From Octopus sinensis (Eukaryota), in the NCBI RefSeq assembly GCF_006345805.1, contig NC_043011.1:19790464-19854463 (forward strand): a stretch of DNA of 64,000 nucleotides. Reading direction: 5' to 3'. Position 1 is the first letter of the stretch. Each line of letters opens with the position of its first letter. The notes beneath the pieces were generated by a model that made no database searches, was not told where the DNA came from, and worked only from the letters and a program-made list of their open reading frames with translations. Position numbers and translations under genes: made by a program. This document shows, in pieces, positions 5,391-48,389 of this stretch.

Positions 5391-6289
5391 AAAGGTAAAT
5401 AAATATCAAAACATCTCGTGCGGTTATCTCTGAAAAATTGATATTTGTAAGTAAAAGGAGAACTTTATAATTTGGCGTTTGCAACATGCACGGTAGCTAA
5501 ATGCCTTGAAATCATTGCATATGATTTTAATAAGTGGTATGTTGTGATATGGATGCAAAACTGCGACACTTGTCTAATACTTTTCACTGAAGGGTTTTAC
5601 CGACTATTTCAAAGTGCACATCTTTGTTTGGAAATAAGGGAAAAGAGACAGTGAACGAAAGTAAGTAAAATTCTTTCTTTTTCTTATGACCAAGTGATAT
5701 TTATGGGTGTTGAGTCAATTTGGTTATGTTTAAATTTTTACATGTGGAGCAAGCTTTGTGAAGGCCATGATTTTTTTTTTAGGCCGAATTAGCTTATAAA
5801 CAGTCTGCTACATTTGTCATCTATAAGTCGTGTAAATTCGACGTGTCCATTCTTTTAAACGTTTGAAGTATATTTTCTGGAAATGAATAGGAAATCTCAT
5901 CGAAAGTTGCAAGAATATAAAACGATAATGTAATTTATAGCATCTCGTAAGTGAAGCTAAAACTGAAGTAACTACTAAAGTCAGTCTCACCAACAATATT
6001 ACACCTGTGAATTTTTACTAACTTTTAATTTAACAGAAAGTTCATTTACATGGTATAGAAAGGGAGGTAAAATATTCCATATATAGTGACTTACAGCCAA
6101 CACAAAATTTCATGGAACTTTTTAGTAAATCAGTTTCTTGTAAATTGCTGCTGGGAAATAAAAACTGTATTCTATCCTGCAAGACAAGCAATGAGAAAGA
6201 TGCAGCATGCAACAATTTCTACCATACGAAAGTCATAATTGTTCCAATTGATTGATGTTCGATAATAAACTATATATAATATTACTTTT

Positions 6290-6697
6290 TTACGTGTTTC
6301 AGTCATTTGACTGCCACCATGCTGGAGCACAGCTTTTTGTCGGGCAAATCGACCCCAGGACTTATTCTTTGTAAGCCTAGTACTTATCCTATCGGTCTCT
6401 TTTGCCGAACCGCTAAGTTACGGGGACGTAAACACACCCAGCATCAGTTGTCAAGTGATGTTGGTGGGACAAACACAGACACACATACACACACACACAT
6501 ATATATATATACATATACATATATATATATATTACGAAGAGCTTCTTTCAGTTTCCGCCTACCAAATCCTCTCACAAGGCTTTGGTTGGCACGAGGCTAT
6601 AGTAGAAAACACTTGCCCAAGGTGCCACGCAGTGGGATTGAACCCTAAAGCATGTGGTTGGTAAGTAAGCTACTTACCACACAGCCAATCCTGCGCC
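6290..6697 (-). mobile_element. tRNA-derived SINE family A, full length, with central (CA)/(TA) microsatellite
   Basis: Minus-strand head ggcgcagg..tggctgtgtggtaag (A box) and ggttcaatccc (B box), a CORE-like ccttgggcaagtg block, and a 3' part ending gactgaaaca. Collinear with the copies at 27677 and 35205. Confidence 0.9.
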
Positions 6698-9794: not shown

Positions 9795-10316
9795 ATTACA
9801 TGGGAAAATGCGTGCATGTAAAGTAATATTATTAAGATTATAGCCCTGAAAAATTACAGGACAAGTTATTACACCTGGAAAAGTATAGGAGAAGCTATTA
9901 CTTCTTGTAAAGTAGAGAATAAGAATCTTTTTATTTAAATTATTGCAGCTAAAATAAAAATTTGAATATTAAAACTTATTTTATTATAGTTTACAAATAA
10001 CACTATACTTATTTAAGTAGAATTTGGCTAATTTACTATATTGAATAGAGAAACAAAGTGACTAATTAGACAAACTTACAAATTAACTGAACAGTTTTGT
10101 ACAATAAATTCAACAGATGAGAACTGTAAAGAGTGATAAATTAGAAGAACTGGCATTCTTTGTTGCAATATTTTAAGTAAAACGTTTCTTATTCTTTACT
10201 TTACTAGAAGTAATAGTTTTTCCTATACTTTTACAGATGTAATAAATTGTCCTGTAGTTTTCCAGGTTTTTAATCTTAAGAATATTACTTTTCCTGCTCG
10301 CATTTTTCCATGTAAT
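9795..10316. mobile_element. MITE/foldback element with ~140-bp terminal inverted repeats
   Basis: 9795-9932 (attacatgggaaaatgc...aaagtaatatt..taagatta...caggacaa..tattaca..aaaagtatagga..ctattacttct.gtaaagta.agaataagaa) is the reverse complement of ~10180-10316. The interior is AT-rich and non-coding. Confidence 0.88.
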
Positions 10317-10597
10317 TTACGTAAGTATGTATGCATAGATATAGATATACATAACTGCTTTATCTATAGTCATTAAATGTACGGTTCATTACCTCACTCC
10401 ATTCATCAAATTAATGTTGGCCGAGCAGGTACATGGTATCGAACCGGTCGCGGAGCAATGTGTCAGGAAGTAGTTTGTGCTAGTATACCATTCACACACC
10501 TGTCCACGATTTGAAACCACGATATCGCAATTGTGAGTGTAACACCCTGACCACTAGGCTATGTATATGTATATTTACTTTACTTTTTTTTTTTTTT

Positions 10598-10732
10598 ACT
10601 TACTTGTTTCAGTCATTTGACTGCGGCCATGCTGGAGCACCGCCTTTAGTCGAGCAAATCGACCCCGGGACTTATTCTTTGTAAGCCCAGTACTTATTCT
10701 ACCAGCCTGTTTTTGCCGAACCGCTAAGTGAC
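10598..10732 (-). mobile_element. SINE family A, 3' half
   Basis: tgtttcagtcatttgactgcggccatgctggagcaccgcc...ttttgccgaaccgctaagtgacg is nearly identical to the reverse complement of 27955-28085. Confidence 0.88.
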
Positions 10733-20320: not shown

Positions 20321-20495
20321 TCTCTGAATTATTTATTGTGTGATAATAAGCAGTCACTCGTTAAAGATGAGGATATTAATAGTGAGATGGAATCTCGAGA
20401 AGACGATAATTATGCAGTAAGACGGCATGACAAAAGCTAATACTTAAGATTTCAGTAAATTCATATTAGATTTAAATTTATGGACACGTGAAATA

Positions 20496-20789
20496 TGCCC
20501 ACGGGCATATGGCGTAGTGGTGAAGAGCGCGGGTTACTAACCCCAAGATTCCGAGTTCGATTCCAAGCAGTGATCTGAACAACAACGATAGTAATGATAA
20601 TAATAATAATAAGAAGAAGAAGAACAACAATAATAATAATAATAATAACATCGAAGAATACCTTAGGAATGAGAACGCAGGTTCGAATTTTCCCCAAGAC
20701 ACCTGAAGAGCCTGGAGGGTATATCAGCCGAAACGTTGTGTTAACAACAAACAAGATGCGGACAAATATCCGTCGAATGTAAATAATGT
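20496..20789 (+). mobile_element. tRNA-headed small retroelement with (AAT)n spacer and 3' hammerhead motif; 10-bp TSD
   Basis: Flanking direct repeat acgtgaaata at 20486-20495 and 20790-20799. A box tggcgtagtgg, B box gagttcgattcc, (AAT)/(AAG)/(AAC) tract, hammerhead at 20698-20742. A second copy lies at 37107-37492. Confidence 0.85.
20698..20742 (+). ncRNA. Minimal type I hammerhead ribozyme motif
   Basis: gacac-CTGAAGA-gcctg/gagggtatat/cagcc-GAAA-cg-TT-gtgtt. Stem I is gacac:gtgtt, stem II has one mismatch, and the loopless stem III is palindromic (aacgtt). Confidence 0.7.
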
Positions 20790-22829
20790 ACGTGAAATAC
20801 TTGTTATTTAAAGCAACATAGATTTGTATTCGTAGCAATAGTTGTTTTGGGTCATCATACCAGGAGCTGCATTTTGTCGGCTGTAAATAAGAATCATGAT
20901 GTTTTCTATGCATATTGGAAATATTGTGTAGGTCATAATACCGTCAAATTTGTCCTCCGTTACTTATTACGACGGTATGCGCGGAGTAGCACCTTTTGTT
21001 GATATTTGATGTTTATTTGTATGTTGTTCCTTAGTGTTCAAAGAGTGATTCGCAGAAATGTACGAAATCATGTAGCAACCCTTATCGCTTCCACCTGAGG
21101 TATGTTGCTGCATTTCTGTGCAAGATACCTTTGACTGGGCAGCATGTGGAAGATGAAGAAGACGACAACGAGGAATTTTATTCGCACAATGTGAATGTTG
21201 CATGAAGGAAAATCAGACATGTCATTTTCCATAAAGCGCAAAATGTTTGGTGAAGTGATAAGGGTTGCCGGAATGTCGATTCAAGAGTTTTCTATCGATT
21301 CCTATTACGGTGGAGAATTCTGAAGGAAAACGTCTTAACCAAATGATGAAAGACGGATAGAGTATATAAGTGTGAAACATAATTCTTGTGGCAGGCAGAT
21401 TCTAGGGCTTGCTAATTTCAGTTTTCTTGTTCCGTTTTCTTTCTTTTGTTTTTGCTAGTTCTCTCAAGTTTGAGAATTTAGTGTTATGTGACGGAAAATA
21501 GCAAGTAGCCAGCAGATTTGTATCAAGGAATGACATTCCAGTAGTTAATACTAAACGCACTTGACACAGCATCCACGTGTACGTATTTGTTTTGAAACAT
21601 GATAAAGTGGCATTTCAGTTGACACGTGCAGAGTTCAACGAAGAGGAGGAGGACGGGGAGGAGGAGGTAAGTCGCATTTTTTCGATTATTGATTGTGTGT
21701 GAAACGTGACGATGCTGAAGGATAATTGACGCGGAATATTCGGCTTGAGCAACTAAACCAAAAATGTAAAAACCACAGTGGTACCGACCATGTGCCAGAG
21801 ATGATCTGATTATATTCTCAACTCGAAATCACTCTTGTGAATATGTTTTTGTCGCTGCTGCTGCTGTTGTTATTGTTTAGCGCGTTACTATTCTAATGGA
21901 ACACACCAATAATCAAAGAGTTACATTGCAATTATCTCGTCATAATTTTATGAAGAAGTTAAATATATCATTCACTATGTCCTACTCTATTTAAAATCTA
22001 AGCGATTGGCTGGCGATTGTCTAACAAATAGCTCATTCTAGCGTTTTGAGTAGAGTGTATAAAACAGGTATTGGATAAATTGTGAAGACACGTTAATGGT
22101 TGTGTGAACAAAAACTGACAGGCAAGTGAGCTATGGTTAGTCAAATAAAATCTACAGTATATTCCACACGCGTCTCTATACAGAAAGAAATGTTCATGAA
22201 TTATTATAAGGAAATTAGTTCTTAAAAATCTACGACGCCTAGAATTTCAATACGTCTTATTTTAAATTATTCGTGATAATATTTAGAACATAAAACATAC
22301 AGCAGGCGCCCTTTCGCTTGGAACATGTTGAGATTCCAATTATTTTATGTTACCAAAGTTACAGAAAATTTTGAAGTAAAAAAAGATTTCTATATTTCTT
22401 TTTTCTTCGGAGATATCTAACTCTACATGACAATATAGAGATATCAAGTTTATTCAATCTACAACATACACGAAAATATATTGTGTTTAAATAAATATAT
22501 GTTCAAAAATTTATGAATATGATATTATGTAGACATATATCATTAATCACAATGCATCTGTTTATGAATATAAATTCTAAGGAAGCTTCCATATAAGTTA
22601 ATCCTTTAAGAATATAATGAAAAAATGGTATTTCAAATTTTGATAAAATTATTTTGAGAAAATTTAAGGAAGCGACATATTGTCTTTCTGTTCCTGGGGT
22701 TAAATTATTTCACAACATATTTATAAATTTCATTTCAATAAAGAAAATTATACAACATATAAACAATATATGTGTTATGTTTATCTTTCATTTTCAATAA
22801 ATTTATCTCAACTTAGTGATTTCACTAGA

Positions 22830-27676: not shown

Positions 27677-28105
27677 GGCGTAGGAGTGACTGTGCGTTAA
27701 GTAGCTTGCTAACAAACCACATGGTTCCGGGTTCAGTCCCACTGCGTGGCATCTTGGGCAAGTGTCTTCTGCTATAGCCCCGGGCCGACCAATGCCTTGT
27801 GAGTGGATTTGGTAGACGGAGTCTGAAAGAAGCCTGTCGTATATATGTATAAATATATATATATATGTATGTGTGTGTGTGTTTGTGTGTCTGTGTTTGT
27901 CGCCCCCCCCCCCCAACATCGCTTGACAACCGATGCTGGTGTGTTTACGTCCACGTCACTTAGCGGTTCGGCAAAAGAGACCGATAGAATAAGTACTGGG
28001 CTTACAAAGAATAAGTCCCGGGGTCGATTTGCTCGACTAAAAGCGGTGCTCCAGCATGGCCGCAAGCAAATGACTGAAACAAGTAAAAGAGTAAAAAGAG
28101 TAAAG
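27677..28105 (+). mobile_element. tRNA-derived SINE family A, full length
   Basis: Head with B box gggttcagtccc, cttgggcaagtgtc block, central (TA)/(TG) tract, 3' end gactgaaacaagtaaaagagtaaaaagagtaaa. Confidence 0.92.
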
Positions 28106-37103: not shown

Positions 37104-37159
37104 TTTTATATTATTTAGATTATATGTGACGGATATTTGTCCTCGTCTTTTTTGTTGTT

Positions 37160-37207
37160 AAGACAACGTTTCGACTCATATACCCTCCAGCATTCATCAG
37201 GTGTCTT
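37160..37207 (-). ncRNA. Hammerhead ribozyme motif (stem II degenerate)
   Basis: Minus strand: aagacac-CTGATGA-atgctggagggtatatgagtc-GAAA-cgTT-gtctt. Confidence 0.55.
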
Positions 37208-37260
37208 GGGGAAATATTGAACCTGGGTTCTCATTCCTAATGTACTTTTTGATGTTGTTG

Positions 37261-37341
<81 letters not shown>

Positions 37342-37432
37342 TCACTGCCTGGAATCGAACTCGGAATGTTGGGGTTAGTCACACGCGTTCTTAACCATTA
37401 CACCATATACCCACGGTTCAATATTTCCCTAA

Positions 37433-37478
37433 GACACCTGATGAAGGCTGGAGGGTATATTAGCCGAAACTCTGTGTT
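37433..37478 (+). ncRNA. Hammerhead ribozyme motif (stem III degenerate)
   Basis: gacac-CTGATGA-a-ggctg/gagggtatat/tagcc-GAAA-ctct-gtgtt. Confidence 0.6.
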
Positions 37479-37804
37479 AGCAACAAACAAGATTTATAAA
37501 ATTACCCTATTATTAATTAGGTAGATAGATAGATAGATAGATAGATATAGATAGATAGAAAGAAGTGTTAGTTTGCTCCTCCCCATCTGTTTCGCTTTCA
37601 AAACTAAGCAATGATGGGTTCAACCAATTAAGCAAACTGCCGGGTAAACATAACATGTATGTGACTGAGTATTCCTAGTTTCTGAGCGTTCTGCACGTAA
37701 ATATATCGGGTCGAGTTATCGTGACACACTTTATAATGAAGCCATGGAGATATAAAATATATAAGTTATAGAAGTAGTATTTGTATACACACACACAGAC
37801 ACAA

Positions 37805-48126: not shown

Positions 48127-48389
48127 TTCTTTTATTCTTTCACTTGTTTCAGTCATATGATTGTGGTCATGCTGGAGCACTGTCTTTAGTCGATCAAATC
48201 GACCACAGTAATTATTCTTTGTAAATGTAGTACTTCATCTACCGATCTCTTTTGCTGAACAGCCAAATCACAGAGACGTAAACTCACCAAATCGGTTAAT
48301 AAATATTTGTTATATGTACAACAATCCAGATATTTGAATACCCTGTTTTTTCTAATATATATATATTATATAATATATATATAAATATA

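Follow-up and report, generated by a model that had tools for sequence, protein, structure and literature searches.

The inverted structure at positions 37107-37493 of the window, the 64,000-nt stretch of Octopus sinensis DNA analyzed here, probably consists of head-to-head pLTR pieces of a coding Penelope/Poseidon-type retrotransposon, likely laid down in one insertion by a fold-back mechanism that we infer from its end products (Table 1). Alignment confirmed the architecture described in the initial annotation, in which a complete minus-strand copy is fused through AC to a plus-strand hammerhead segment at a GG microhomology; the likeness that it saw to the inverted pLTR arrangement of Penelope-like elements was also right. 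The minus-strand unit (37107-37412) aligns with the 20503-20790 copy at 80% identity across 306 columns and differs from the family majority at 21 of 202 aligned positions. Two assignments fit the GG at 37415-37416, namely head +1/+2 and body +136/+137. Over 84 columns, the two arms show 88% complementarity, and folding of the locus gives a long hairpin (-143 kcal/mol, z -12.9), in agreement with the dsRNA-type structure that had been predicted. The three hammerheads of the window carry different lesions, in stem II in the 20496 copy, in stems I and II in the minus arm, and at U16.1 and G16.2 in the plus arm, which bears out the earlier suggestion of an intact consensus. The divergent Pol III heads that had been proposed are absent from this locus, which has a single tRNA-like head. 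No target-site duplication (TSD) was recognized around it, the context being a GATA microsatellite and the plus arm lacking a 3' end. The last ten bases of the plus arm (AGATTTATAA, window 37488-37520) recur in the element leader at -38 to -29, either by chance or through a template jump, and 20 unexplained bases lie between the end of this arm and the GATA repeat (same interval).

Table 1. Coordinates of the inverted locus and of the 20496 copy, numbered from the first base of the window.
Feature	Position	Strand	Remarks
Full pLTR arm of Penelope element, head +1 at 37412	37107..37412	-	Short 3' end, without the optional tail, decayed
tRNA-like head, does not fold as a tRNA	37337..37412	-	Box A 37405-37395, box B about 37360-37351
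(AAT)n/(AAC)n microsatellite separating head and body	37254..37336	-	Length differs among copies
Minimal type I hammerhead motif, mutated in stems I and II	37160..37205	-	Overlaps N-terminal codons of the element ORF
2-nt centre, AC	37413..37414	.	Read from the full arm, the flipped (GT) leader, never found in ORF-linked copies
Second, inverted arm, body +136 to +214	37415..37493	+	Joined at the GG microhomology, 3' end lost
Minimal hammerhead motif	37433..37478	+	Stems I and II intact, core U16.1 changed
Left copy of the 10-bp target-site duplication of the 20496 element	20486..20495	+	Right copy at 20790-20799
Solo pLTR copy from leader position -7, short 3' end	20496..20789	+	Hammerhead at 20698-20742

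The first 18 nt of the head had 1976 exact matches in the 2.72-Gb genome searched. Of 72 consecutive head matches on contig C1, 16 extended upstream into a common non-palindromic sequence, which is the end of a GIY-YIG-type nuclease frame. At the 30 best nuclease-end loci (the query among them), this frame closes with a stop followed by a 32-nt leader, and the head sequence comes next in 28; the last two leader bases are AC in 19, AT in 8, AA in 3 and GT in none. The native leader-head junction had 420 exact genome matches. Further upstream, an RT domain was matched (RVT_1, PF00078), and a natural 551-aa frame had 1697 homologues, some with PF01541. A local Pfam search gave no GIY-YIG match on the family's own frames; the natural frames carry a C-terminal CVYSIPC-type motif (CxC..H..H), which we take to mark a GIY-YIG-type nuclease. 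A PDB search returned no match, and the RT-EN linker of L204 contained no extra Zn-finger. Full-length pLTR-ORF-pLTR copies exist, body and tail continue into the ORF at 7 of 20 long loci, and one long, ORF-linked locus (L218) starts 2 nt ahead of the head. The translated pLTR body matched the N-terminus of an 847-aa relative (P0003) with 37-46% identity, and the hammerhead lies at the start of the ORF. The unit runs from the tRNA-like head through (AAT)n, the ORF start with its hammerhead motif, an optional tail of about 30 nt, the RT, the C-terminal GIY-YIG-type nuclease and a stop to the 32-nt leader and the next head. Two alternative 3' ends, near +250 and +280, occur in the family and lie 30 nt apart; RNA reads from a related organism also contain both as loose ends. 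Judged by its sequence, the unit is the pLTR of a Penelope/Poseidon-type element (EN+), the clade being assigned from the order of the domains.

Copies differ from the majority by a median of 4.6% outside CpG (150 arms). The hammerhead core, whose most frequent variant position is N7, diverges by 3.9% and the rest of the body by 4.0%; the core is thus conserved no better than the body, indicating neutral decay. Rfam found neither a tRNA nor a hammerhead in the window and two good copies. By inspection, the core and stems of the hammerhead motif fit the minimal type I features described in PMC4209133. The (AAT)n spacer grows to hundreds of bases at many loci and often hosts other repeats (L011, L013, L051, L056). 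At L211 and L365, nuclease-end or pLTR-ORF-start pieces precede another pLTR to which they are joined, evidence of tandem source RNA and of template jumps.

In a sample of 20 distinct host tRNAs, the nearest to the head was Arg(TCT) (z 7.6-7.9; others 3.8-6.3); ARAGORN recognized no tRNA in the window or the majority head. Boxes A and B stand at tRNA spacing from the hot spot of 5' starts. The sense strand of the majority unit (2611 nt) contains no T4 run and 30 A4 runs, an absence of T4 with P 0.005 against single-letter shuffles and P 0.09 against Markov-1 shuffles. Natural copies have 0.44 T4 runs per kb, and none of 80 related metagenome ORFs was as low (median 5.0 per kb), nor was any of 40 ORFs matched in T content (median 2.8 per kb). 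Against synonymous-codon shuffles, T4 avoidance was not significant in any of the six frames, that is, it did not go beyond codon usage. Taken together, the start at the head and the lack of T4 runs suggest that the tRNA-like head likely serves as a promoter read by Pol III; transcription of this kind is likely where the short copies are concerned and possible for the element as a whole.

It is also possible, although we are inclined to doubt it, that the head is that of a captured SINE with no promoter role, and that the element is transcribed by Pol II, the 5' hot spot reflecting a capped start or the hairpin alone. A TATA-like TTTATAA lies 30-36 nt before the head, as such a reading would have it, but a TATA at -30 is compatible with Pol III too. 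The Markov-1 and synonymous-codon comparisons also speak for it, and long cDNAs that pass the hairpin (L007, L118, L199, L200) indicate that RNA with upstream sequence also exists. Given the same cDNAs, an RNA 5' end accounts for the hot spot more readily than arrest at the hairpin does, and both the spacing of the boxes from it and the scarcity of T4 in the majority unit and its copies, below all 80 related ORFs, argue against a head without function. A non-autonomous tRNA-derived SINE was rejected as the identity of the repeat: the head with boxes A and B is present, but inside the autonomous element itself.

A search of 80 metagenome Penelope loci for paired A and B boxes and for similarity to the head or body was negative; since many of these contigs stop close to the ORF, the result does not imply absence. 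RNA reads of a related organism (three runs from one study) covered the family on both strands at equal depth; 5' ends did not pile up, and neither starts nor ends were discrete. The reads contained joints between opposite strands at -7 and close to it, which might equally come from template switching during cDNA synthesis, and as regards editing their letter differences are inseparable from copy variation.

We annotated 153 rows (72 head-selected, 50 centre-selected, 30 body-selected and the 37107 locus). Five of these were removed as duplicates, correctly in three cases and through a signature collision in the other two (L008, L009). The centre-bearing set comprised 49 loci after removal of L053, which is the same locus as L052; because the set was selected for 8 mirrored bases, it holds no short arms below 8 nt. 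The recurrence of the palindromic centre was borne out: the 18-nt sequence had 500 exact genome matches and its reversed control none. Only 1 of the 49 loci (L036) has two full heads; 41 have one and 7 have none. The median length of the short arm is 11 nt (range 8-44), beyond which the sequence jumps to a variable point in the 3' part or to the flank, so inner breakpoints vary between loci and outer ends are precise. A tail was present on exactly one arm in 54 of the 57 loci with both outer ends resolved and on both arms in none; the other three, with a tail on neither arm, comprise a miscall (L004) and two compound loci. Within the centre-bearing loci, 13 tails lie on the AC arm and 12 on the GT arm. 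Of 106 loci, 37 have duplications of 8-15 nt surrounding the whole palindrome; among shuffled flank pairs the count was 21 of 2000. The two arms of a locus agree at the subfamily sites (17/21, 36/40 and 41/47) and share variants at 10.3 per 1000 against 4.1 for permuted arms, a 2.5-fold excess that none of 1000 permutations reached.

Among the 72 head-selected copies, 56 start at -10 to +1, where about 12 are expected by a hand estimate from the upstream truncation rate (two rows in this count, L083 and L108, were mis-binned in opposite directions), and 24 have a truncated inverted arm joined directly at the head start. The last five bases of the native leader mirror the first five of the head, and the centre recurs because this mirror falls exactly where most copies begin. 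The palindromic centre of the 20496 copy, at 20493-20510, had been linked to an inverted dimer; the 18-mer is indeed present, beyond chance, but of its eight inverted bases five are native leader and three belong to the target duplication, and the copy is a monomer with a TSD. A recurrent inner junction was observed at head 22/36 across a TAACC repeat (L006, L010, L014 and, similarly, L029), which marks a second hot spot, of joining or of deletion. A few loci are compound, with two successive palindromes or segmental duplicates: L052/L053 (G000:C1:172862307-172865748) and L007/L022.

The centre occurs in both polarities. The full arm of the 41 asymmetric loci carries AC in 31 and GT in 10 (P 0.0015), a bias that is weaker (17 versus 7) when only short arms of at least 10 nt are counted, some arms of 8-9 nt being chance matches, as at 20496. 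The 37107 locus is flipped (GT), although GT never occurs in ORF-linked copies. Genome matches to the flipped leader had clean starts at -7 in 16 of 23 cases (two of the 16 resemble mutated palindromes, and two are one duplicated locus), and matches to the native-type leader in 23 of the 30 examined out of 60. Flipped arms (n=23) diverge by 3.4% and native-type arms (n=43) by 3.9%, with the same mix of subfamilies, and the flipped copies showed no clustering against the native-type arms (P 0.81). The presence of both polarities together with the lack of GT in ORF-linked copies points to self-priming by a cDNA hairpin that could open on one side or the other. Second-strand priming from such a hairpin, followed by a stop or an opening to one or the other side of the tip before the other cDNA is joined, is also the simplest single mechanism for the two polarities. 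Two-sided hairpin opening has analogies in V(D)J coding ends and in parvoviral flip-flop.

How the palindromes arose was considered against four other accounts. The initial annotation had regarded an inverted dimer with divergent Pol III heads, copied whole, as the parental unit. Apart from the 500 exact centres and the one locus with two full heads, this view found little to agree with: a copied dimer would give a shared inner structure and a ragged outer end, and the reverse was seen, with variable inner ends, precise outer ends and a single tail on either arm. The ORF-linked parent is linear, with a non-palindromic leader, 420 native junctions and pLTR-ORF-pLTR copies, and neither a dimer lineage nor a flipped lineage was detected. 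We therefore conclude that the palindromes are insertion products and not a propagated dimer, that divergent Pol III heads are exceptional, that the two-headed parent does not hold, and that its likelihood is very small. An assembly artefact at the 37413 junction is, if anything, still harder to credit. None of the listed Logan contigs (from four DNA runs, with the family present in organisms A, B and C) bridges the junction, which supports neither side. The two arms differ at 10 of 84 columns, like junctions from the centre to +136 occur at L125/L334 and L347, palindromes flanked by a TSD are common, and opposite-strand joints appear in the raw reads of the relative, all of which speak against such an error.

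Two accounts in which flipped copies arise otherwise deserve more weight. The flipped copies, including the 37107 locus, might be second-generation, SINE-like copies, transcribed from the internal Pol III promoter that an older palindrome carries on its GT arm and mobilized in trans. This would suit the 16 clean GT starts at -7, some of them without an inverted arm, and also the rare variants common to both arms at several loci (at +143 in the 37107 locus), which point to numerous source copies. GT-type arms share rare variants no more often than at random, and their age and subfamily match those of AC-type arms; many one-off sources remain compatible with these data, and we regard the account as unlikely. 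Somewhat less probable again is the annealing of two full-length cDNAs whose 3'-terminal 12-mer is self-complementary (10 pairs and two G-T), giving a full inverted dimer of random polarity, one arm of which was later shortened by palindrome-driven deletion. Both polarities and the 13:12 split of the tail would follow, the TAACC junction at 22/36 resembles slippage across a hairpin, and the 37107 junction sits at a GG/CCCA microhomology. On the other hand, full double heads occur in 1 of 49 loci, the short arms bunch at 8-25 nt without spread, polarity is biased 31:10, and the truncated inverted arm right at the head start in 24 of 72 copies fits poorly with it. For the 37107 locus by itself, deletion after insertion, shortening either arm of an unstable palindrome, could explain the structure equally well.

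In the fold-back mechanism that we favour, the nuclease would cut both target strands, and each 3' end would prime one minus-strand cDNA. The two cDNAs would start at opposite ends of the tail, as for PAc in vitro, leaving outward-facing 3' ends. The source RNA would begin about 5-7 nt ahead of the head, likely where boxes A and B position Pol III to start, so that the cDNA 3' end is self-complementary owing to the mirror between the last five leader bases and the first five of the head. This end could then fold back and prime a second strand, and the resulting hairpin, after a stop or an opening at 0-25 nt from its tip on one side or the other, would be joined to the other, usually shorter cDNA through microhomology. 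A stop or opening on the 3' side would give a full arm with native AC (about 3 in 4 cases), and opening on the 5' side would leave flipped GT (about 1 in 4, including the 37107 locus). The copies would afterwards decay neutrally, and a read-through transcript of the 37107 locus would form about 80 bp of dsRNA trapping both hammerheads. A broader proposal, which we advance tentatively and think rather unlikely as a whole, is that a coding Penelope took over a tRNA promoter, purged T4 runs along 2.6 kb and came to be read by Pol III, its thousands of short copies recording how the second strand is made in Penelope transposition, by hairpin self-priming at the 5' end of the RNA and subsequent flip-flop opening, with the two polarities at 3:1.

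Several other features of the window were recorded. An unrelated AT-rich inverted repeat (9795-9952 and 10159-10316), with 158-nt arms that are 85% complementary and 206 nt apart, looks like an old MITE-type element. Another dispersed repeat lies in both orientations at 6282-6438, 27938-28094, 48130-48289 and 10589-10713, and similar sequence recurs in the flanks of many fetched loci. Between 42001 and 46000, G+C rises to 0.43-0.52 with a strong A/T skew; no long tandem array was scored there, and no match to the Penelope element was found.

Through the single tail of each insertion, its TSDs, its fixed 5' start and the flippable polarity of its centre, the family forms a countable record of insertions, which makes the origin of the inverted layout directly testable in vitro. 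Should the tRNA-like head function as a Pol III promoter for a coding element, the divide between SINEs and autonomous elements would be blurred, and if the RNA is made by Pol III, the translation of an uncapped RNA becomes a question. The inverted arms would also be a built-in source of dsRNA in host transcripts, and the repeat is prone to mislabelling as a SINE or a MITE.

The octopus tRNA-derived SINEs OK, OR1 and OR2 were reportedly described by Ohshima and Okada in 1994. By description, tRNA-derived SINEs, these three included, resemble the present repeat in having a head with boxes A and B, a length of about 290 nt and many copies, whereas the head of the present repeat belongs to the autonomous element's own pLTR. 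OR2 is named as a CORE SINE in PMC4758252, tRNA-like sequence in non-autonomous LTR elements is described in PMC10886601, and octopus Penelope and SINE families are counted in PMC13282606, where the part available gives no detail of a tRNA-headed pLTR. We found no paper on such a Penelope pLTR in the literature searched; the repeat may already carry a name. Non-LTR retrozymes (bioRxiv 10.64898/2026.07.22.740005) are likewise hammerhead-bearing, short, PLE-related units, but they form tandem arrays, whereas octopus copies are dispersed and inverted. We rejected this identity because the annotated loci are dispersed, single or inverted, with no head-to-tail hammerhead tandems and few compound loci (L007/L022, L052).

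The minimal type I hammerheads of metazoan PLEs, as described in PMC4209133, share with ours an extra base between 9 and 10.1, a G10.1-C11.1 pair, a palindromic 15.2-16.2 and the lack of a helix III. They are predicted to need a dimer; in the head-to-head octopus copy, the second hammerhead is on the opposite strand and offers no partner in cis. In L1 twin priming and hairpin-mediated inverted duplication (bioRxiv 10.1101/2024.12.14.628481), the second target end likewise primes on the RNA, and small end hairpins lead to inverted duplications. In L1 this is an occasional outcome with non-overlapping segments, whereas in the octopus family it is the rule, and both cDNAs start at the 3' part and overlap.

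The closest parallels are other Penelope elements. PAc (Poseidon_Ac) of Anolis carolinensis has an RT with a C-terminal GIY-YIG and a hammerhead over the ORF start, and in vitro it cuts and extends both target strands and uses two RT start sites that bound the tail; as described, it has no tRNA-like head, and the account consulted does not cover the inverted junction (PMC11167929). Pen2a_Av, Pen2_Av and Pen3a_Av of Adineta vaga share the pLTR-ORF-pLTR layout, the adjacent inverted pLTR, a tail of about 31 bp on one inverted pLTR, first codons within the pLTR and an 8-10-bp TSD around the insert, and have palindromes of 18-38 bp at the inverted junction, for which their authors proposed self-priming (PMC3846280). 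They differ in having few copies, whereas the octopus family has thousands, and in carrying TATA/Inr-like motifs in the pLTR where the octopus pLTR has its tRNA-like head. The inverted layout is also described in PMC8557442, and its origin is stated as open there, in PMC3846280 and in PMC11167929. The octopus locus has a structure of a type already known, carried by an unusual Penelope variant, and the two centre polarities are the part that bears on the open mechanism: the Adineta authors place self-priming on an antisense template (PMC3846280), whereas the octopus polarities would point to the minus-strand cDNA.
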